This document shows, in pieces, positions 5,392 through 52,317 of a stretch of DNA of 64,000 nt (within the stretch, counting starts at the first letter, position 1; each line of letters opens with the position of its first letter). Made by a program: the position numbers and the translations under genes. The stretch is from Candidatus Daviesbacteria bacterium (GTDB lineage: Bacteria; Patescibacteriota; Microgenomatia; Daviesbacterales; UBA10151). Below the pieces are notes generated by a model. That model had not been told where the DNA came from. It did no database searches and saw only the letters and a program-made list of their open reading frames with translations. The stretch lies in NCBI GenBank assembly GCA_016186955.1, contig JACPKP010000006.1, positions 4,055 through 68,054 on the forward strand. Reading direction: 5' to 3'.

Positions 5392-5460
5392 GTCATTCTA
5401 GGATTTTGTCATCCTGAGCAAAGCGAAGGATATATATTCTTCACTAAGTTCAGAATGACA
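5392..5460 (+). repeat. palindromic intergenic element (tgtcattct...agaatgaca) containing the gtcatcctgagcaaagcgaagga motif
   Basis: Terminal inverted repeats tgtcattct/agaatgaca. The internal motif is shared with other loci (see findings). Confidence 0.5.
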
Positions 5461-7243: not shown

Positions 7244-8302
7244 GTGGAAGAAAAGATTGAACAGTTATTAAATGAGTTCCCAGATAAAATAAAAAATGCC
7301 AAAACACTCAAGGATTGTGATATGCTTTTTCTGGAGCTTTATGGAAAAAAAGGTCATTTAACATTACTCACAAGAGAATTTAGGAATCTTGACAAAAACC
7401 TCCTGCAAAGGATCAGACCGAAGTTCCTCTCCGTAAAAAATCTGGAGATTGATTTAAACAAGCGCAAAGAGGAGATACGGGAAGAGGGATACCGAAAACT
7501 TGAAAGTGAAAAGTTGGATTTGGAAGAGATTGCTTCTCCGGCTTCGCCGGATCGCAATGACGGGCGCCGGAAAGGGCATTTGCATCCTACGACTATTTTC
7601 ATGCAGGAGATAGTTGAACTCTTTAAAAAGCTGGGGTTCCAGCAATATGATGCGCCCCAGATTGATACTGACTATAATAATTTTGAAGTATTAAACATTC
7701 CACCTGAACACCCAGCCAGGGATCTGTGGGACACATTGTACATAAATTCGAAATTCGAAATTCGAAATTCGAAATTACTCCTGAGGACTCATACATCTAA
7801 TTCCCAAATTCATATTATGAGGGAATTCAAACCCCCAATCAGGATGATGGTTTTGGGTAGATGCTTTAGGTATGAAAATTTGGACCCGAGACATGAACAT
7901 ACTTTTGACCAGTTTGAATTAGTTTATATAGACAAGGGCTTGAGCATGGCAAATCTGCAATTTCTTTCCGAATATTTTCTAAAGCACATGTTCGGGCAGG
8001 AGATTAAGGTCAGACTACAACCCGGATATTATCCCTTTACAGAACCTTCAGCAAAAATTTTAGGAGAGTGTATTTTTTGTAAAGGCAGCGGGTGTAAAAT
8101 TTGCGGCGGGGTGGGCTGGCTGGAACTGGCAGGTGCAGGTATGATCCACCCAAAAGTTTTAGAAAATGGCGGTGTTGACCCAAATATTTATTCAGGAATT
8201 GCTTGGGGCGTGGGTCCTGCCAGAATGGCAATGCTTAAATGGGGTATTGAGGATATCAGGGAATTTTTAAAAGGAGATTTGAAATTTCTTCAGAAATTTT
8301 AA
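7244..8302 (+). CDS. pheS: phenylalanyl-tRNA synthetase alpha subunit
   Basis: Class II core motifs (FTEPSAK... GAGMIHPKVLEN... GIAWGVGPARMAML). Contains an in-frame heptamer repeat (attcgaa)x4 at 7745..7776. Confidence 0.9.
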   Translation: MEEKIEQLLNEFPDKIKNAKTLKDCDMLFLELYGKKGHLTLLTREFRNLDKNLLQRIRPKFLSVKNLEIDLNKRKEEIREEGYRKLESEKLDLEEIASPASPDRNDGRRKGHLHPTTIFMQEIVELFKKLGFQQYDAPQIDTDYNNFEVLNIPPEHPARDLWDTLYINSKFEIRNSKLLLRTHTSNSQIHIMREFKPPIRMMVLGRCFRYENLDPRHEHTFDQFELVYIDKGLSMANLQFLSEYFLKHMFGQEIKVRLQPGYYPFTEPSAKILGECIFCKGSGCKICGGVGWLELAGAGMIHPKVLENGGVDPNIYSGIAWGVGPARMAMLKWGIEDIREFLKGDLKFLQKF

Positions 8303-13249: not shown

Positions 13250-13322
13250 CCGCAGGTGGCAGAACGGTTGATGCAACAGACTGTAAATCTGTGCCAAGTA
13301 GGTTCGACTCCTACCCTGCGGA
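13250..13322 (+). tRNA. tRNA-Tyr (anticodon GTA), class-I-like with a 5-nt variable loop
   Basis: CCGCAGG acceptor stem pairs with CCTGCGG. Anticodon stem ACAGA/TCTGT with loop CTGTAAA, T-arm GTAGG-TTCGACT-CCTAC, discriminator A. Confidence 0.8.
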
Positions 13323-13378
13323 CACAGCGAAGCGAAGGACACAGCGAAGCGAAAGACACAGGGCAAGCTTTACCCTGC
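13323..13378 (+). repeat. tandem acacagcgaagcgaa(g/a)ga units followed by a second copy of the tRNA-Tyr 3' end (taccctgcggac)
   Basis: Read directly. taccctgcggac occurs at 13312, 13365 and 14498. Confidence 0.6.
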
Positions 13379-13551
13379 GGACCGCAAAATATTTCTTTTT
13401 AGACTTAAACTGCCTATGAATAAAAGATGTCAAGACTTCAATATTGCACTTTTGTTTTGCTTAGTCAGAAGGACAAAAAATTCTATAAAGGACCTATAAG
13501 TCATGTGAGGGAATTATAAGATATTTATTTTTTATGCTATAATCAATACTT

Positions 13552-14364
13552 ATGGATACCCCTGAAGAGTTAAGGAATACATTATCTTTAGAATCAAATC
13601 TTTCTAGAATTGGTATCACTTCCTTAACATTTCCTCAAATCTTTGAAAAATCAAGAATATTTGGTTTAAAAGCTAATCGTGCTTTTATACCTGAACAAAG
13701 GGGGAGGGTGGCAGATGCCTTATTATTGATGCTAGAGGTTCATTTTGATCAAAATCCTCGTCCAGATGGCACTCCTTATACGGACCACCCCCTAACCGTA
13801 GCAGATAAAATTATGGATATTATGGTTAATCCTGACCCAGAATTAGTCATAGCAGCCCTATTACATGATAGTGTAGAAGACCAAAGTAATAAACTAGCCA
13901 GAAAATATAGAGGATACAACGCAGATTCAACACTAACAGATGAGCAAGCGGCACTAGAATTTATAAAAGTACACTATGGTGCAAGGGTTGGAAGAACTGT
14001 AGCTGCTCTTTCAAATCCCGATTTCAATGCACAATTAGCAATTTTAGGAATAAATGAGAATCACCCTGATTATAGAATACATAAAAATATTCTTTACGCT
14101 CAACACGTTGCGGAAATCTCTGAAAATCCTGATGCGTTTTTAATTAAATTAATGGATTTTACTTCAAATGCTGGAGATTTAATGAAATTACCAGATGGAT
14201 CCCAAAAAATTAAACTAATGAGGAAATATGGCCCTGTTGTGGGTACCATGAAAGATGGACTGTCCCGATTAAATCTTCCTATTAAGGAAAAAGCAAAAAT
14301 TTTATTAGAAGCTAAATTAGAAGACATCGACAATTATATTAGTCAACAGATATCTGCAAAATGA
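13552..14364 (+). CDS. small alarmone hydrolase, RelA/SpoT-family HD domain (standalone SAH/Mesh1-like; 270 aa)
   Basis: HD motifs R-x-x-G-x-PY-x-x-HPL-x-VA and AALLHDSVED, then LIKLMD...N, match the Rel hydrolase-domain signature. TGA stop. Confidence 0.75.
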   Translation: MDTPEELRNTLSLESNLSRIGITSLTFPQIFEKSRIFGLKANRAFIPEQRGRVADALLLMLEVHFDQNPRPDGTPYTDHPLTVADKIMDIMVNPDPELVIAALLHDSVEDQSNKLARKYRGYNADSTLTDEQAALEFIKVHYGARVGRTVAALSNPDFNAQLAILGINENHPDYRIHKNILYAQHVAEISENPDAFLIKLMDFTSNAGDLMKLPDGSQKIKLMRKYGPVVGTMKDGLSRLNLPIKEKAKILLEAKLEDIDNYISQQISAK

Positions 14365-14495
14365 TTTTTTTCTTATAAATTTCTATAAACATTTATCTCC
14401 TCAAAGCTCAGAAATGGTATCAGGGTGCGACTAGCGTTCACTAGGCGGACCGAACGAAGTGAGGGGAGCAGGGCAACGTTCTTGCGGAGCAAAGT

Positions 14496-14512
14496 TGTTA
14501 CCCTGCGGACAG
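14496..14512 (+). repeat. third copy of the tRNA-Tyr 3' end (gttaccctgcggacag) inside a GC-rich segment at 14420..14512
   Basis: Exact 12-nt match to the tRNA 3' end. Confidence 0.5.
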
Positions 14513-16475: not shown

Positions 16476-17933
16476 CTACCCTTTGTTGAGAATACTTTGC
16501 CATTTAGGAAGAAAGCGCCTGTCTGCCACTTTCGGTCCATAAGCAGTTCCAACAACAGGTACTTCCAGTTTTTGTGTTACGTATTGCAAAAAGGCTTGTT
16601 CCAAACTTTGGCCTTTAGAGGACGTAAGGGTTGTGACTATTGGACGGCACTCGTTTAAAAGTTGAGTAAGCCGGAATTGGCGCTTATAGTGTGCCGGGTC
16701 GCCAGTATCAGGATGCACTTTTATGCCAATGATTTTATCTGCCGCTAAATCAAAATATTCATCCAAATCAGCAACATAACCCTGATATTTATAAGATTCA
16801 ACTACTTGCCAGTCATTTCTTCCAGATAAAACATCCATGTAACTTACCAGTAAACCGTCAAACGCTTTGCTTCTTTCCGCAAAAGTAAGGGAATATTTAA
16901 GAGCAACTGTATCAAAGTATCCGGTTCTGAAATCACCAAGCCAATCATTTGCGGCATTGTTATACGTTTCTACGAGTGTCTCTGTAAGTTCCGGGTCAAA
17001 ACTTACCAAAGGTCCTGCGCCGTGTCTTGTCAGGTAACTTCTGACAACACCAATTCTAAGGATATTCCCACCATAATTATGGTTTTTCAGTGTTGTTAAA
17101 ACATCTCCTGAGGTTGGGTCAACCTGGGTTACATGGGGAACAAAACCATACCGGGGGTGGTGAAGCGCTCCATGGGAAACTTCATTGACTATGGAACCAT
17201 CCTTTTTGAGTAATTCATCTAAATAATCATCTCCGGTAATTTTTATCAGATCCGCAGCATATCCAAAAGCATCTGCTACAAGACTGACAAGCTCTTTATC
17301 TCTCAACACGCTCATTTCGGAATAAACCCTATCCGGGGGAGCTCCTTCGTAAGAAACTAGTAACTCTTCCGCCGTCTTAAGTTTGGCCAGCCTAATATTT
17401 TCAACTTTTCTTAAGATTGTTTCCCTGTCGCTGAATTCACCTGCCCTTATTGAAAGTTCACTGTTAACTGAATCCTGCACTGCTTCACCAACACCTTTTC
17501 CAATTGTGCCTTTTCTATTCAGTCCGCGTAGTACCTCACGGGTTCTGCTTATTCCGCTATGGAAAGGGGTAGTTGCCAGACAATTTTCATCAATAAACAT
17601 TTTTTCCAGAGGGTTTGGGACTCCAAGCTTTTCTAAATCTAGCGCTTCCTGGAAAAGTTCGACCGGGCTTATGACCATATGTTTTAAATAGGTATCCGCA
17701 CCCTCAAACACACCCGCGCCAAAGTGGCTTAGCGCCATCTCGCGTCCGTCATCGTGGATAATATGGTGTCCGCCTTGCCAACCGCCGGAGCGCCACACAG
17801 TATGGGCATTCAGTTTCCGGACAAGCGCTTGGACAGTATTTCCTTTTGATTCTTCGCCCAAAGCAAGACCATTAACTATGGCAAAATATCTTTCGGTTCC
17901 CATAATTTTCCCTTTCGTCCTGAGCGTAGCCAA
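16476..17933 (-). CDS. adenylosuccinate synthetase (PurA)-family protein with a degenerate P-loop
   Basis: Reads NGLALGEESKGN where PurA has GDEGKGK. WQGGHHIIHDDG matches QGGHNAGHT, and YLTRHGAGPL matches TTRVGAGPFP. Confidence 0.6.
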   Translation of the reverse strand: MATLRTKGKIMGTERYFAIVNGLALGEESKGNTVQALVRKLNAHTVWRSGGWQGGHHIIHDDGREMALSHFGAGVFEGADTYLKHMVISPVELFQEALDLEKLGVPNPLEKMFIDENCLATTPFHSGISRTREVLRGLNRKGTIGKGVGEAVQDSVNSELSIRAGEFSDRETILRKVENIRLAKLKTAEELLVSYEGAPPDRVYSEMSVLRDKELVSLVADAFGYAADLIKITGDDYLDELLKKDGSIVNEVSHGALHHPRYGFVPHVTQVDPTSGDVLTTLKNHNYGGNILRIGVVRSYLTRHGAGPLVSFDPELTETLVETYNNAANDWLGDFRTGYFDTVALKYSLTFAERSKAFDGLLVSYMDVLSGRNDWQVVESYKYQGYVADLDEYFDLAADKIIGIKVHPDTGDPAHYKRQFRLTQLLNECRPIVTTLTSSKGQSLEQAFLQYVTQKLEVPVVGTAYGPKVADRRFLPKWQSILNKG

Positions 17934-18133
17934 GTCATGCTTGGCTAGTCGAAGGACTCATCAGTACGGATTTAATCCGCAGAGGGTTGGCAGCGGCCTG
18001 CGGAGACGATGTAATCCGGGGAAAGCATCACTTTATTGATGCAGCCCCAAAGAACAAAGTTTCCGCAGACCTTGAGCTTTTCAGCTCATGCTGCCCGCTT
18101 GCTCACCTTCGGGTGAGCGGTGAAGAGTGTTTG

Positions 18134-19309
18134 CTAACGATCCAAAGCCGGCGCATTCCAGTTGTCGCCACGTACGAGCGCCGGATCCCGCCTTGGCGGG
18201 CGAGAGGCAGCCTGTTTCCGGTTTGAGTCCTGTTCCTGGTCCAGCTTGTCCCAGGGAATGGCCCCCCCTAGCTGTAGTAGGGCGCCCAGGTAACCGTACT
18301 CCTCGTTGCCTGTAGCGACGTTGGACAGCTCCATGATACCCAAGGCATACCGAGTGATGTTACGTTCGAGACGGACGTAGTCCGCTCCAACGTTGACACC
18401 GAGCATCTTGAGCATCATGTCGCGGGTAGTAGCTCCGACAGTTGCCGGAAGTGCGGGGTCCTCCAGGATCCCCTTAATGCGCGTCGCGTCGTGCGCGAGA
18501 GCCCGAGCAACCGGAATTCCAAGGCCGCCAAAGACCTTGTTGATCCGGTTGATGACGGCTTCTGCCTCATCGCGCAGGCCGGCGGTGTCAGGCGGTTGGA
18601 GCATGCCTGGTGGCATAACAGCGGCACCCCCACGGCCGGTCTGAGCCATGGCGAGGACGGAAAGGGCCATCATAGGATTGTTCACCCCCTTGGCCCACGT
18701 ATCGGTCCAGTTGATGAGCAGCTCGTTGAAGCTGCGAAGCGCCGGCCAGAGTTCGGTGTTGAGCCGGGCGAGGAAAGCGCTCTTGCGCTTGTCGCTCATG
18801 AAATTGCCCGGGTACCCGAGCGCCGACAGGACATCCCCGTAACGGCGTTGCTGAGCCAGCTGGTAGACCTTCTTGAAGTTCTCACCGGCAGGCTCTTCCT
18901 GCTCATCGGCAAACTGCTCTGCACGCGCCAGCAGGACTTCAGGTAGTTCGTACAACCCGACCCTTGCAGCGATTGCAGCTCTCATAGCCGACATCACGTC
19001 GATCCGCTCAACCTTGAGCATCCCTCCGACCTTGAGCATCTCCAGGAAGCTTGAGTCGTCAGGAACGGTCGGAAGCGTGTCGAGCGAAGCCGGTTCGGCA
19101 GTGACCTGTTCGGCCGCAGGTGGCGCGGGGGCGAAGGCTTTAGCAGCCTTCTTGGCCGCGATCACGGTGCATCCGGTGATTTCCCGGATTTCATACTCGT
19201 TTAGGAGCACCATTTCGGCATCGCCCGCGACCCCCTGGTCGGCAAGCTTGCCGGTTTGCTCCTCCGAGAAGCCCAGCTCTGTGAGCCGGGTCTTCAGTTC
19301 CTCGTTCAT
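18134..19309 (-). CDS. high-GC hypothetical protein (about 391 aa; start MNEELKTRL preceded by AAAGGAG)
   Basis: Ala/Arg/Gly-rich with GC-rich codons. I used the internal start at 19307..19309, which has a strong RBS. Confidence 0.5.
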   Translation of the reverse strand: MNEELKTRLTELGFSEEQTGKLADQGVAGDAEMVLLNEYEIREITGCTVIAAKKAAKAFAPAPPAAEQVTAEPASLDTLPTVPDDSSFLEMLKVGGMLKVERIDVMSAMRAAIAARVGLYELPEVLLARAEQFADEQEEPAGENFKKVYQLAQQRRYGDVLSALGYPGNFMSDKRKSAFLARLNTELWPALRSFNELLINWTDTWAKGVNNPMMALSVLAMAQTGRGGAAVMPPGMLQPPDTAGLRDEAEAVINRINKVFGGLGIPVARALAHDATRIKGILEDPALPATVGATTRDMMLKMLGVNVGADYVRLERNITRYALGIMELSNVATGNEEYGYLGALLQLGGAIPWDKLDQEQDSNRKQAASRPPRRDPALVRGDNWNAPALDR

Positions 19310-19401
19310 GAAAAACTCCTTTTTGTTTGCTGTCCACAACACATAGCTGTGGATGCGGGGAAACTTCCGTTTCCTCCTTTCTTCACAGTTTCGGGCTGTT
19401 A

Positions 19402-20526
19402 CTAAGAATCGGCTTCTAAAGGTGTAACGTTTTCGCCTTGCCTCGAGTGGCTGATGGGCCATGCGTGGCGGTAGTGGGCGAATACATCTCCCGGGCGGGG
19501 GATGTCCTGGTAGCCGGGCAGCTTAGACTGAGCGCCAAAATGCTCCTGCGCTACCTGAACCATCCGCCAAACCTGATTGAGGTTGGCGGCGTCAATCGTT
19601 ACCTTATCGCCGGTCCGCAGGAACTCGATTAGACCCTGCTTGCTCGGCTTTGACGCCTCCGTCACATAGACGAGGGCTGCACGCACGTCAGCCAAAAGAC
19701 CCGGGTTTTCAACCTGGATGATCCGGCTGCGTCCTCCCAGCTTCTCCGCCCACCAATCCGTAGTGTACGGAAGGAGTCGGCCGGTATAAGTAGGGACTTG
19801 CAGTACGAAAGGATGCCAATGCTCCAAGAGCTGCCGGCAGATTTCCTCCGTCGCCATATTCAAGAAATCAGCTGCCTGGCCAAGATATTCCCTGACGCCC
19901 TCAGCGGTCACGAACCCGCGTCCGATCTCGTCTAAGGCGATCGTCAAATAGCCCTTGAGACCGTAGTAGGTCCATGTGTCCGCGTAGACCGACAGGGCGT
20001 AGTACAGGCCCAAATCGTAATCTTCGGCTGACGAGTCGTTTCCCATGCTTGCAGGCTGGAGCAGCCGCACCTGTTCGGCGCTCCGCTCATCAGACTCAAA
20101 CTGAGAAACTTGAACGACCGGAAGTCCGTCGTTATGGACATTGTAAAAGTCATTTACAACGCCTGTTGCGAGCTGCGGGTTGTACCGGGTTCGCACTCCA
20201 TCAAGCAGCTTGTACTGTCGCTCGGCTGTGCGGAAGAAATCCCCAACATATTGGGATGTACTCCCGGTGCCGTCGAAAAGACTGAGAACCGGCAAGGAAA
20301 CACCGTGGGTCAGAAGATAGGTACCTGGTTCATCACTGGGAACCATCGCGTTATGGCTTTCCCGCGGCTTCTTGCCGACGATGTCGACATTGGGATGAAG
20401 GTGGCCTGTTACGTCGCGGTACGTTTTTCCCGCATCGTGAACACCCTCATGCCGTTGATTCATAGAGCGGACAGTCGCCCGGTAGGATTCCGGGTCAAAT
20501 TGCCGTACATTTTGGGGATTCCCCAT
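19402..20526 (-). CDS. high-GC hypothetical protein (374 aa); possible vWA-like MIDAS-type motif LFDGTGST
   Basis: RBS ggaaaggag before the ATG. The flanking promoter region is AT-rich. The motif assignment is tentative. Confidence 0.45.
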   Translation of the reverse strand: MGNPQNVRQFDPESYRATVRSMNQRHEGVHDAGKTYRDVTGHLHPNVDIVGKKPRESHNAMVPSDEPGTYLLTHGVSLPVLSLFDGTGSTSQYVGDFFRTAERQYKLLDGVRTRYNPQLATGVVNDFYNVHNDGLPVVQVSQFESDERSAEQVRLLQPASMGNDSSAEDYDLGLYYALSVYADTWTYYGLKGYLTIALDEIGRGFVTAEGVREYLGQAADFLNMATEEICRQLLEHWHPFVLQVPTYTGRLLPYTTDWWAEKLGGRSRIIQVENPGLLADVRAALVYVTEASKPSKQGLIEFLRTGDKVTIDAANLNQVWRMVQVAQEHFGAQSKLPGYQDIPRPGDVFAHYRHAWPISHSRQGENVTPLEADS

Positions 20527-20941
20527 CTCAGACTCCTTTCCAAAGGTTATTTACAGTCCAACCAATCAAGATACGTTACGTGCCTTTGATCAGCCGTTGA
20601 TAGTTACCTCCTTTCACTCTTCACTTGTCAATGTGCCTTTTGCCTAGTTTTCTAGACAAACAGGTAAATCTTTATCAGGATCCACTTGTTTGTTTAGAAA
20701 ACGTCGTCAATTGTACTCTAAAATGTAATTTTGTGTCAAGGAACGCTGGCATGAAACAATATAGTGTTAATATTACACTAACTATTGGGAGAAATCAAGA
20801 TCCAAAAGCTCGGTATTTCAATTAAACTCTTCTGAGTATGACGCAACAAATTTACTACAAGATAATATGGTATAATTCAATTATGAATAAAAATGCAGCA
20901 TACAAAGCTAAAGAACCAAAAAAGTTTTAACAGTTCAATTT

Positions 20942-40954: not shown

Positions 40955-41028
40955 TCAAAACTTTGTCATCTCTCGCGAATGCGAGTATTTCTGAAACAAG
41001 TTCAGAGATTCCTCGTTATACTCGGAAT
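40955..41028 (+). repeat. TIR-bounded repeat of about 70 nt (ttgtcatctc ... ctcggaatgacag), related to the copy at 48328..48395
   Basis: Shares ttgtcatctc, agagattcctcg and actcgga blocks with the second copy. Confidence 0.55.
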
Positions 41029-41172
41029 GACAGCTTCTTTGTTAAATCCTGAACAATTACCTTGTCATGCTGGTTCACCTGGAACCCTTGACAACTATGG
41101 GTTAGATGTGTTAGGATTCTTTTTACGCACATTGACAAGGGGTTGGGGAGGAAAAATTCGGAGGAGGAGAAA

Positions 41173-48314: not shown

Positions 48315-48472
48315 TTGTATTTGTCATCTCGACCGTAGTGAAGAGGCCCCTTTAATCAAGAGATTCCTCGACTACGCTCGGAGTACCAGTTGACTGGGAA
48401 GAACTGAACTCATACTTGTAATTAATAACTCATTTCCTGTTCCCTTAACATCTCCTTTTTTACATTACTGTC

Positions 48473-50190: not shown

Positions 50191-52317
50191 ATGAATCTGA
50201 ACTCCTCCTTATTATCTATACCCGGCATTGGCTCATATTTTTCCTGGAAGCTTAAAAAGTTAAATTTAAATACCCTGGAAGATTTAATTTATCACTTTCC
50301 TTTCCGCTATGATGATTTTTCGGCAATAAAACACACCCTGGAAGCACAAATTGGGGACAAAGTGACAATTATCGGGGAGGTCTGGTCAATTAAAAATATC
50401 TATACCAGATACGGTAAAGTTTTAACCCAGGCAATTTTCAATGACGGGACATCGCCGGTAACTTTAACCTGGTTTAACTCCGCCTGGCTTACCAAACAAA
50501 TTAAAGCAGGGGACAGGCTGCAAGTCTCCGGAAAAATCAGCAAATACAAAAACCGTTTCTCAATAATGATGCCTGTTTGGGAGAAGATTTCCGAAATCCG
50601 AAATAATACGCCCGCTTCGCGAACGAAATCCGAAATCCGAAATCCGTTGCATACCGGCAGGCTGGTCCCGGTTTATCCTGAAACTGAAGGGTTGTCTTCA
50701 AAATGGTTAAGGGCAAAGATATCTTTTTTCCTGCCAAAAATATTACCCCAGATAGAAGACCCGTTGCCCAACCGAATAAAAGAAAACATGCTTGATTTAA
50801 CTAAAGCGCTGGGACAGGTGCATTTCCCTTCTTCCTGGGGAGAAATTGAAAAAGCAAGGCAACGTTTAGGTTTTGATGAACTGTTTTATCTCCAATTGGC
50901 TACTTTAAAATCCCGCCATGACTGGGAGTTGAAACCCACAATTGAAAAATTTCAAATTTCAAATTTCAAATTCCAAATTGTCAATTTTTTGGACAATCTT
51001 CCTTTTAAATTAACTACCGCCCAACAAAAAGTTATTGATGAGATCATGGTGGATTTTGAAAAAACTACTCCCATGAACAGGCTGGTGCAGGGCGAGGTGG
51101 GATCCGGAAAAACAGTTGTGGCGGCGGCCGCTGCTTTCATTGCATACCTGAACGGTTTTAAAACCCTTTATATGGCGCCAACGGAAATTTTAGCTTTTCA
51201 GCATTACACAACCTTAAGCGATCTTTTTAAATCCTTTAGCGTAGGGGTGGGGATTTATACCGGGTCAAGAAAATTTACATCCTCGTCATTGCGAGCGAAG
51301 CGAAGCAATCTCAAAAAAAAGATTGCTTCTTCGCCTTCGGCTCCTCGCAATGACGTTCCTGATATCATAGTCGGAACCCATGCATTGCTTTCATCTAAAC
51401 TTCCTACTGAAAATGTGGGGCTTGTGATTGTTGATGAACAGCAACGCTTTGGTGTGGAACAGCGCTCGCTTTTGCGCTCAAAAGCCAAGGTGCCGCATTT
51501 TTTAACAATGACCGCAACCCCAATCCCCAGGACTGTTGCCCTAACTTTATACGGGGATTTGGATTTATCAATAATTGACAAACTTCCAAAGGGCAGAAAG
51601 AAGGTTAAAACATATGTAGTCCCCAACAAAAAACGCTCTGATGCTTATAAATTTATAGAAAAAAAGGTGCGGGCAGGCGGCCAGGTCTATATTATTACCC
51701 CTTTAATTGAGGAGTCAGAGACTATGCTGGCTGTAAAAGCGGTCAAGGTTGAATTTGAAAGGTTGAAAAAAGAGATCTTCCCGAAACTTAATTTAGGGCT
51801 TTTGCATGGCAGACTCAAATCAAAAGAAAAAGAGCAGGTTATCAGTGATTTTAAAGACGGTAAAATTAATATCCTGGTATCAACATCAGTAGTAGAGGTG
51901 GGGGTTGATGTTAAAAATGCCACTATTATGCTAATTGAAGGCGCGGAAAGATTTGGGCTGGCACAACTCCATCAGCTCCGGGGCAGGGTAGGAAGGGAAG
52001 AAAAACAGTCGTATTGCCTGCTCTTTCCGTCAACCGAAGAATCATCAATTAAATCCAGGTTGAAAAACCTGGAGCGGATTTTTGACGGGTTGAAACTTGC
52101 TGAGCTTGACCTGAAGATCAGGGGGTCAGGGGAGATTTTCGGCGCCAGGCAATCAGGCAGGTTTGAACTGAAAATCGCCAGCTTTCAAGACCTTAACCTG
52201 ATAGAAAAAACCAGGGCTGCAGCCAAACAAATTTTGGCAGAGGATTCAACACTTGCCAAGTACCCACAACTTGCGCTAAAATTAGAAACTATAACATCAG
52301 GCGCAATGCCTGATTGA
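50191..52317 (+). CDS. recG: ATP-dependent DNA helicase RecG
   Basis: Wedge/OB region, helicase motif I GEVGSGKT, DEQQRFGV, TATPIPRT and the motif VI region QLRGRVGR. Start chosen at MNLNSS. Contains three in-frame repeat insertions. Confidence 0.85.
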   Translation: MNLNSSLLSIPGIGSYFSWKLKKLNLNTLEDLIYHFPFRYDDFSAIKHTLEAQIGDKVTIIGEVWSIKNIYTRYGKVLTQAIFNDGTSPVTLTWFNSAWLTKQIKAGDRLQVSGKISKYKNRFSIMMPVWEKISEIRNNTPASRTKSEIRNPLHTGRLVPVYPETEGLSSKWLRAKISFFLPKILPQIEDPLPNRIKENMLDLTKALGQVHFPSSWGEIEKARQRLGFDELFYLQLATLKSRHDWELKPTIEKFQISNFKFQIVNFLDNLPFKLTTAQQKVIDEIMVDFEKTTPMNRLVQGEVGSGKTVVAAAAAFIAYLNGFKTLYMAPTEILAFQHYTTLSDLFKSFSVGVGIYTGSRKFTSSSLRAKRSNLKKKIASSPSAPRNDVPDIIVGTHALLSSKLPTENVGLVIVDEQQRFGVEQRSLLRSKAKVPHFLTMTATPIPRTVALTLYGDLDLSIIDKLPKGRKKVKTYVVPNKKRSDAYKFIEKKVRAGGQVYIITPLIEESETMLAVKAVKVEFERLKKEIFPKLNLGLLHGRLKSKEKEQVISDFKDGKINILVSTSVVEVGVDVKNATIMLIEGAERFGLAQLHQLRGRVGREEKQSYCLLFPSTEESSIKSRLKNLERIFDGLKLAELDLKIRGSGEIFGARQSGRFELKIASFQDLNLIEKTRAAAKQILAEDSTLAKYPQLALKLETITSGAMPD
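51283..51357 (+). repeat. 75-nt palindromic element inserted in frame in recG, encoding TSSSLRAKRSNLKKKIASSPSAPRNDV
   Basis: cgtcattgcgagcgaagcgaagcaatc-tcaaaaaaaaga-gattgcttcttcgccttcggctcctcgcaatgacg. The two arms are reverse complements. Confidence 0.65.

Follow-up and report, generated by a model that had tools for sequence, protein, structure and literature searches.

In a 64,000-nucleotide stretch of a Candidatus Daviesbacteria contig (hereafter the window), the helicase gene recG (50191-52317, plus strand, 708 aa) carries in frame an imperfect palindrome of 72 nt at 51284-51355. This palindrome is probably a head-to-head dimer of hairpin units of the CGTC-tagged repetitive extragenic palindrome (REP) or Ssn-related-motif (SRM) class, ATTGCGAG subtype, and a miniature, non-autonomous derivative of a cassette in which such units flank a small GIY-YIG nuclease gene. 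CGTC-tagged repeats form one of the two REP superfamilies that Di Nocera, De Gregorio and Rocco (BMC Genomics, 2013) separated by an unpaired GTAG or CGTC tag (PMC3733652). The original prediction for this stretch had proposed a new, second family of miniature palindromic elements; the features described below place the element instead in the class already published under these two names (PMC3733652, PMC11893778).

The recG palindrome and its host loop

The palindrome runs from CGTCATTGCGAG to CTCGCAATGACG and reads in full CGTCATTGCGAGCGAAGCGAAGCAATCTC-A6-AAGATTGCTTCTTCGCCTTCGGCTCCTCGCAATGACG, with perfect complementarity over the outer 12 nt. It had been described as a near-perfect inverted repeat of 75 nt (51283-51357) around an A8 loop. 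The palindrome is real, although imperfect and 72 nt long, and the A8 run is present at 51313-51320, where it forms the loop of the long hairpin. As single-stranded DNA (ssDNA), the 91-nt stretch around it folded at -26.9 kcal/mol compared to -9.6 +/- 2.4 for shuffled sequences (z -7.3, with 0/200 shuffles as good); as RNA, the palindrome folded at -37.5 kcal/mol (z -6.9).

Between the inner parts of the two arms there is no complementarity, and the element can be read as a head-to-head dimer of two inverted hairpin units whose heads point outward across a 6-nt spacer, and which can also be folded into one long hairpin. The left unit (51284-51312, plus strand, CGTCATTGCGAGCGAAGCGAAGCAATCTC) opens with a CGTC head. 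Its stem pairs ATTGC (51288-51292) with GCAAT (51305-51309) and encloses a GCGAAGC mini-hairpin, and the invariant C at 51310, directly after the palindrome, is followed by the tail TC. An A-rich spacer without strand (51313-51318), which makes up the A8 run together with 51319-51320, separates this unit from the right unit (51319-51355, minus strand). The latter, CGTCATTGCGAGGAGCCGAAGGCGAAGAAGCAATCTT in minus-strand reading, has the head and boxes of the left unit and a longer inner hairpin, GCCGAAGGC.

The host open reading frame (ORF) has 100% identity to a RecG protein of Candidatus Daviesbacteria at NCBI, which places the window in a genome of the candidate phyla radiation (Microgenomates). 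Translation confirmed the encoded peptide that had been predicted, SSLRAKRSNLKKKIASSPSAPRNDV, at residues about 364-388, as well as the in-frame insertion of ~25 residues between helicase motifs, here motifs Ib and II: the insert lies between the strand ending in YTGS (motif Ib) and DIIVGTHAL/motif II (DEQQ). Compared to Thermotoga maritima RecG (1GM5), it replaces the 18-residue segment TTPSEKEKIKSGLRNGQI between the motif-Ib TGS strand and DVVIGTHAL. In an AlphaFold model of the window RecG built on 51 orthologs (mean predicted local distance difference test score (pLDDT) 77.9), residues 366-373 and 375-386 had pLDDT <50 between the confident strands 353-356 and 392-395. In the N-terminal two-thirds, just one other long low-confidence loop was modeled, at 137-150, and a third was located near the C terminus (645-657). 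The insert peptides gave no match at E values up to 10 in NCBIfam or Pfam, libraries that may lack a model for Rickettsia palindromic elements. For RecG, the insert most likely represents a disordered loop of 25 residues that is tolerated as a passenger and is no adaptation.

Distribution of the units and their nuclease neighbor

When one genome per species was scanned for exact matches to GTCATTGCGAG-N30-60-CTCGCAATGAC, at least 120 loci were obtained, compared to ~1 match expected by chance (an estimate based on 22 fixed bases, 596 Gb and 31 spacings). Among the matches listed, the hosts included Bradyrhizobium, sphingomonads, Rickettsiales, Legionellales, delta- and gammaproteobacteria and Bacteroidota, as well as Cyanobacteria, Chloroflexota, Planctomycetota, Berkelbacteria and Saccharibacteria, a phylum-level spread that includes Alpha-, Gamma- and Deltaproteobacteria and the candidate phyla radiation (CPR). 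The listed dimers are built alike: a head is followed by an ATTGC stem, an inner hairpin that is GCGAAGC-like or longer, (A/G)AGCAATC(C/T) and a spacer that varies, after which the parts before the spacer recur in mirror image. Their unit consensus is (C/T)GTCATTGCGAG...GAAGCAATC(T/C)C. Because each half folds on itself, the element is a doublet of inverted units. The GC-rich string GCGAAGCGAAG, by which the family had initially been defined, is not its hallmark; the conserved boxes are (C/T)GTCATTGCGAG and GCAATC.

Target-site duplications were absent in 119/123 dimers. The flanks were biased only at position -1 (C 66%, T 24%), and neither complementarity nor duplication of the flanks was found beyond position -1/+1. 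Sixty-one of the 123 dimers lie inside long open frames, a count that is uninformative in GC-rich genomes. Searches of Rfam, with the window and 18 element loci at gathering thresholds and with the element in an E-value scan, returned only tRNA, ffh and noise and no repeat family, and a full-text literature search for the box sequences retrieved unrelated primers only. All-against-all clustering of the ORFs within 1.5 kb of the 123 dimers revealed no recurrent neighbor family and no recurrent Y1 gene. The exact dimer pattern was also present on 92 predicted viral contigs from IMG/VR (including L209-L288), some with three copies, which may be host DNA; among isolated phages, only distant nuclease homologs (35% identity) were seen, in Rhizobium phages. 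Body-less truncated heads (GTCATTGCGA(G) or GTCATTC..) were noted 14-25 nt upstream of complete units for ~14/616 heads. Such stacked heads occur at L041 (three in a row), at L118 (~1632-1652), in the RecG ortholog L004 (1287-1307) and in the window at 5392-5407.

At one of the at least 120 listed dimer loci, L118, ATTGC units bracket a 96-aa GIY-YIG gene. An Escherichia coli YhbQ probe (an approximate sequence) gave this locus as the one GIY-YIG match near the 120 genome copies; the link between element and gene was not apparent from the element loci and became evident when searching outward from the gene. Members of the L118 protein family from CPR, cyanobacteria, proteobacteria, Elusimicrobia and other groups share 60-75% identity. 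An alignment of this family retrieved 80 metagenome loci, in which units were located <=150 bp from the gene upstream in 61/80 and downstream in 66/80, and unit density reached 6.7-7.8 per kb next to the gene compared to 0.2-0.5 per kb beyond 1 kb, a 20-30-fold enrichment. The stem was ATTGC in 171/182 flanking units. Upstream units are mostly on the strand of the gene and downstream units on the opposite strand, that is, with heads outward, as in the recG dimer except that the gene takes the place of the spacer. As the same inverted units bracket the 96-aa gene, the recG element looks like the ~400-bp cassette minus its gene.

This arrangement has a published counterpart. Chenal et al. (Nat Commun, 2025) described NTS/SRM repeats flanking genes for Ssn, a ~94-aa single-domain GIY-YIG protein (cd10448) that binds the hairpin sequence-specifically and as ssDNA only, not as RNA, and cuts a few nucleotides upstream of the head (PMC11893778). 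For cleavage the GTC head matters, and for binding the C after the palindrome is most critical; the data cover Neisseria and Wolbachia homologs, and single-stranded units fold individually (PMC11893778). The proteins flanked by units in our set (P0121-P0240; 86-118 aa, most 93-100) matched PF01541 only, with nothing beyond weak GIY-YIG matches in NCBIfam and the PDB, and their catalytic spacing (Y8/Y19/E66) is that of the 94-aa SsnA (Y6/Y17/E64). From 262 ssn-adjacent units we derived the consensus (T/C)GTCATTGCGAG...G-A-(A/G)-GCAATC-(T/C)-C, in which conservation reaches 87-99% for GAG and 98% for the C that follows the palindrome; this C is also present in all three ATTGC units of the window. 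The left recG unit matches every conserved position of this consensus, and the right unit fits it too. A Daviesbacteria locus, L208, contains an ssn cassette with flanking units near-identical to the recG arms, and the unit 22 nt upstream of ssn differs from the left recG unit at 2/29 positions.

Two further observations concern these genes. The annotated N-terminal extension of the Ssn-type protein P0155, MSYNYCHCEEERRSNL, equals a translated repeat unit (TGTCATTGCGAGGAGGAACGACGAAGCAATCTC), so its start codon has probably been mis-called. Many contigs with an Ssn-type gene are only ~1 kb long, as expected for repeat-bounded DNA.

RecG orthologs and further units in the window

The insertion site was compared across an alignment of 120 RecG orthologs (61-68% identity). 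The stretch from YTGS(R/K)K to D(I/V)I(I/V)GTHAL ranges in length between about 5 and 57 residues; in many orthologs the site has no hairpin and a loop of only ~5 residues, whereas ~15/120 contain hallmark peptides of element DNA (VIARSETTKQS...IATLPSVARND, VIASKAKQS...PRND or VIPSEARNL). Compared to canonical RecG and to the many short-loop orthologs, the palindrome is thus an insertion, in agreement with the original prediction of a repeated palindromic element lying in frame within a conserved gene. That it would be specific to one lineage held only in part. It is absent from canonical RecG, but it is not a simple lineage-specific insertion because dimers of this kind are found at the same codon in RecG genes of other Daviesbacteria. 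At the DNA level, four such genes (L001-L004; 63-68% protein identity) have a hairpin dimer at this codon position, three of them with the termini GTCATTGCGAG and CTCGCAATGAC identical to those in the window. The fourth is a hybrid dimer in which the left unit has an ATTCC stem and is accompanied by a truncated extra head.

The reading frame through the element is not fixed. The window copy is read as SSLRAKRSNL and orthologs as VIARSE.TKQS or VIARSETTKQS; in the window, the head is preceded by a pyrimidine leader that is 1 nt shorter, and the element itself brings translation back into frame. In the four RecG orthologs, 34 box positions are identical, compared to 46% identity at third positions of identical-residue codons (88 flanking codons). 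Orthologs differ in the peptide frame but have identical DNA boxes, so that it is the DNA on which conservation acts. Some orthologs have such units in a second variable loop, WEK-LHTG in the wedge domain, and P0015 has dimers at both sites. In a neighbor-joining tree of the 120 proteins, element-bearing alleles were scattered; the tree is star-like, with all sequences at ~65% identity, and therefore does not separate repeated gain from repeated loss or replacement. The RecG surface loop is hypervariable among orthologs and recurrently occupied by several hairpin families.

Three other Daviesbacteria recG genes have unrelated hairpins of inverted short repeats at the same site (L205, 11060-11140; L206, 11050-11125; L207, 11125-11190). 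These are heptamer-type arrays, for example GGGGAAA x4 facing CACCCTT x4, or GAGTCAAGAGTC arrays, and encode KGKGERGKG..SPFTLHP, SRVKSQG..LATSHY and IKEKNHQSSIINHQS. A search for extra copies of these array hairpins in 20-kb flanks gave nothing convincing. The window recG itself has two further repeat-like stretches (~50590-50650 and ~50950-51000), in which CCGAAAT heptamer direct repeats encode SEIRN...SEIRNP within the second hypervariable loop and AAATTTC-type heptamers encode KFQISNFKFQIVNF.

A scan of the window for GTCAT followed by a 5-bp stem yielded 12 units, compared to 4.5 in shuffled sequences. Those regarded as convincing are the recG pair, the pheS unit, the dimer at 5407-5460 and the unit at 41005-41032. 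Only three units are of the ATTGC type, and all are within recG and pheS. The pheS unit, a single copy of the ATTGCGA subtype (7526-7562, minus strand, CGTCATTGCGATCCGGCGAAGCCGGAGAAGCAATCTC), lies in frame in the ORF 7244-8302, and its peptide, EEIASPASPDRND, falls where the N-terminal coiled coil meets the catalytic core; relative to Pseudomonas aeruginosa PheS (4P71), the window PheS has a 6-residue excess at the 'DVTLPGR' junction. A related head-to-head dimer without strand (5407-5460) is composed of TGTCATCCTGAGCAAAGCGAAGGAT and minus-strand TGTCATTCTGAACTTAGTGAAGAAT, whose stems are ATCCT and ATTCT. It is intergenic and upstream of infC, with a class II aminoacyl-tRNA synthetase ORF ending 37 nt before it, and is preceded by the truncated head at 5392-5407. 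Upstream of atpB lies another intergenic unit with an ATTCC stem (41005-41032, minus strand, TGTCATTCCGAGTATAACGAGGAATCTC), with a degenerate inverted partner from 40966. A degenerate unit is located at 48323-48390. The pheS, atpB-proximal and degenerate units had been overlooked in the earlier inspection, which had instead listed four related blocks. The one at 5411 corresponds to the 5407-5460 dimer, of the same superfamily with other stems. The block at 17925 is doubtful: a hairpin is present at 17917-17957, but without a GTCAT head it is a degenerate relative at best. The GCGAAGCGAAG string is all that the tandem 17-mers at 13323-13356 have in common with the family; they have neither GTCAT head nor stem, and the GC-rich block at 14430-14495 has no feature of the family.

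Other features of the window are recorded here as side observations. Bacterial tRNA-Tyr normally has a long variable arm. The tRNA-Tyr(GTA) at 13250-13323 is only 74 nt long with a short variable region, and is followed, within 13324-13382, by two 17-nt tandem repeats (GACACAGCGAAGCGAAG). Copies of the 3' end of this tRNA, together with a hairpin (CAGGGCAA...TTACCCTGCGGAC), occur at ~13360-13382 and 14472-14510, bracketing an HD-domain ORF (13552-14364), and resemble the att-site duplications of an integrated element. A GC-rich island (18000-20600; 58.8% compared to about 40% elsewhere) contains two minus-strand ORFs with overlapping ends, 18134-19462 (no Pfam match) and 19402-20526, and may be foreign DNA.

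Competing explanations and known systems

On the preferred reading, the recG element would be the SRM-ssn-SRM cassette in miniature and without its ORF, sitting in a disordered RecG loop and translated together with it. By analogy with the published enzymes, a unit exposed as single strand would fold alone, be bound by its cognate Ssn and be cut a few nucleotides 5' of the head. Spread and turnover would then proceed through ssDNA breaks and repair from other copies and not by cut-and-paste transposition, and occupied sites could be targeted again by new units, which would account for the fresh-looking units at the same RecG codon in several orthologs. The stacked truncated heads hint at such arrivals of new units at occupied sites, although the published cut position leaves the stacking unexplained. 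Conservation concentrated on the DNA boxes fits a protein that reads the sequence, such as Ssn, together with constraint on the copy or its repeated renewal.

Several points weigh against this reading. Mobility of SRM units is undemonstrated, both here and in the literature. The ATTGC (ATTGCGAG) subtype is sparse and of low copy number in Daviesbacteria; the 64-kb window has three such units, the recG pair is the only occurrence in L002, and no ATTGC-type unit was found in ~66 kb of L205-L207. An ssn gene was sought in the 64-kb window and not found, the rest of the genome being outside the search. Between the flanked GIY-YIG family and SsnA, agreement lies in size and catalytic spacing alone. 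Repeats CGTC-1 to CGTC-4, reported from five phyla with CPR not among them, have 8-9-bp stems and 4-5-nt loops, whereas the window units have a 5-bp perfect stem and a 12-22-nt interior; Bradyrhizobium CGTC-1 repeats with other loops are mentioned (PMC3733652). Lastly, the published SRM string HGTCWYN(0-2)YYVSBRHN(0-5)WNVSBRGN(0-2)RNCYNB, which matches the canonical NTS, gave 0 matches in the window and fitted 0/6 units. This string is a search tool and no definition, and the ATTGCGAG subtype lies outside it.

A stronger version, in which Ssn and SRM are truly mobile and direct new units or dimers to sites already holding one, or convert such sites, by means of ssDNA breaks that Ssn makes and repair from another copy, appears unlikely to us. 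It would explain the fresh and hybrid RecG dimers, the identical boxes amid saturated synonymous sites and the stacked truncated heads. If re-targeting does occur, the permissive loop of a fork-remodeling helicase would be a long-lived 'landing pad' for several hairpin families.

The alternatives differ in whether RNA, a transposase, the peptide or a local event is held responsible. A regulatory hairpin in the recG mRNA, tuning expression as a translation brake or as a site for RNase III or another nuclease, could draw on the stable fold of the transcript segment (-37.5 kcal/mol), on the retention of some hairpin at the recG site in orthologs and on arguments that many REPs act as RNA elements (PMC3733652). 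It is nonetheless quite improbable: specific sequence (GTCATTGCGAG and GCAATC) is conserved and not arm-to-arm pairing, and units occur in both orientations, between genes and around a nuclease gene in unrelated phyla. In addition, many RecG orthologs have the 5-residue loop and no hairpin, Ssn does not bind RNA (PMC11893778) and no Rfam family matched. We regard as similarly improbable a REPIN, that is, a REP doublet mobilized by a RAYT or IS200-like Y1 transposase. The architecture is the same (two inverted hairpin units, a short head left unpaired and no duplicated target site), and Y1_Tnp genes are found in Daviesbacteria, two of them within 20 kb of recG in L206 (1-603 and 15188-15856). 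However, the head is CGTC/TGTC and not GTAG, and CGTC repeats 'apparently lack a dedicated transposase', the survey having found no linked enzyme (PMC3733652). Moreover, a different repeat, GTCTAYCTACCACACTTCCAKGGTGAATT, lies in direct copies on either side of the second L206 Y1_Tnp gene, and the ATTGC units, with no recurrent Y1 neighbor at the 120 listed loci, are enriched 20-30-fold beside the GIY-YIG gene.

Selection for the encoded peptide, as an adaptive surface insertion modifying RecG in line with the speculation that REPs in repair genes yield mutator or altered-recombination phenotypes, is highly improbable in our view. Intragenic REPs do show a marked excess in replication/repair genes and tRNA synthetases (PMC3733652), and all three ATTGC units of the window are in recG and pheS. 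Nevertheless, orthologs translate this DNA in differing frames (SLRAKRSNL versus VIARSETTKQS), the insert has pLDDT <50 and other orthologs carry unrelated hairpins or nothing at the site; the scarce intergenic room of compact CPR genomes alone would bias surviving copies into permissive loops. Least probable of all, to the point of being nearly negligible, is a classical MITE (a miniature transposable element with inverted repeats) that would stem from an insertion sequence with a DDE transposase, or a palindrome made locally by template switching in a variable loop. The element is short, palindromic and non-coding on its own, and the site is variable in length; however, target-site duplications are missing, and the 'terminal repeats' are self-folding units, and the gene that they surround is of the GIY-YIG and not the DDE type. 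The at least 120 exact-box matches in other phyla exclude a local origin. The RNA hairpin, Y1-mobilized REPIN, adaptive peptide, classical MITE and local origin are all weaker explanations than an SRM dimer.

Apart from a described repeat class and a described partner enzyme, four things are new. The CGTC-REP/SRM class is present in a CPR genome, with recG as host gene. The ATTGCGAG subtype is very widespread and escapes the published SRM search string. A second unit lies in frame in pheS, and one RecG loop is used recurrently by dimers or other hairpins in many Daviesbacteria orthologs. The system of Ssn and hairpin motifs is thereby extended to the candidate phyla radiation, where, in tiny gene-dense genomes, such repeats survive as disordered loops inside housekeeping genes (recG and pheS). 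The RecG loop with its several hairpin families offers a natural allele series for repeat mobility and site choice, which both published studies left unresolved. For annotation, peptides such as VIARSEATKQS, SLRAKRSNL and ARND are best taken as translated repeat DNA and not as protein motifs.

Among known systems, SRM/Ssn is matched in the unpaired HGTC head 5' of the palindrome (CGTC on the recG and pheS units, TGTC on the 5407 and 41032 units), in a palindrome that starts with AT and is directly followed by C (ATTGC...GCAAT-C in the window) and, at the level of the subtype and including L208, in inverted units on both sides of a ~95-aa GIY-YIG gene with a spread over many phyla. The NTS-ssnA-NTS layout is itself insertion-sequence-like, with mobility not demonstrated (PMC11893778). 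The window units differ in having an ATTGC/GCAAT stem with a 12-22-nt structured interior instead of the NTS arrangement ATTCCCGC-GAAA-GCGGGAAT, and the recG copy is intragenic with no nuclease gene seen in the window, whereas only 2% of the NTS of N. meningitidis lie within genes (PMC11893778).

The CGTC REPs carry a terminal CGTC (or TGTC/CCTC) tag, open their stem with AT, end in a 3-nt tail and mostly form head-to-head dimers; they include Neisseria dRS3 and the Rickettsia palindromic elements RPE-4 (CGTC-4) and RPE-6 (CGTC-1) (PMC3733652). With them the window units share the CGTC/TGTC tag, the AT, the 3-nt tail, the head-to-head dimers and in-frame intragenic copies, which in the published class are notable in DNA-repair genes and tRNA synthetases. 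The tail is CTC/CTT in the window compared to CCA in alphaproteobacterial copies. The spacer of CGTC dimers is 20-100 bp or shorter, and that of the recG dimer is 6 nt.

Rickettsia palindromic elements are likewise palindromic repeats that lie in frame in housekeeping genes and are translated as extra surface peptides. The classic RPE-1 of Ogata et al. 2000 is reportedly ~150 bp long with a conserved peptide; the recG element, in contrast, is 72 bp, and its peptide frame varies among orthologs. The REPIN/RAYT system offers the same logic of an inverted REP-hairpin doublet that is the non-autonomous partner of a single-copy, repeat-flanked nuclease gene and that lacks target-site duplications, with a GTAG head and an HUH Y1 transposase in that system and a CGTC head and a GIY-YIG protein in the one described here.

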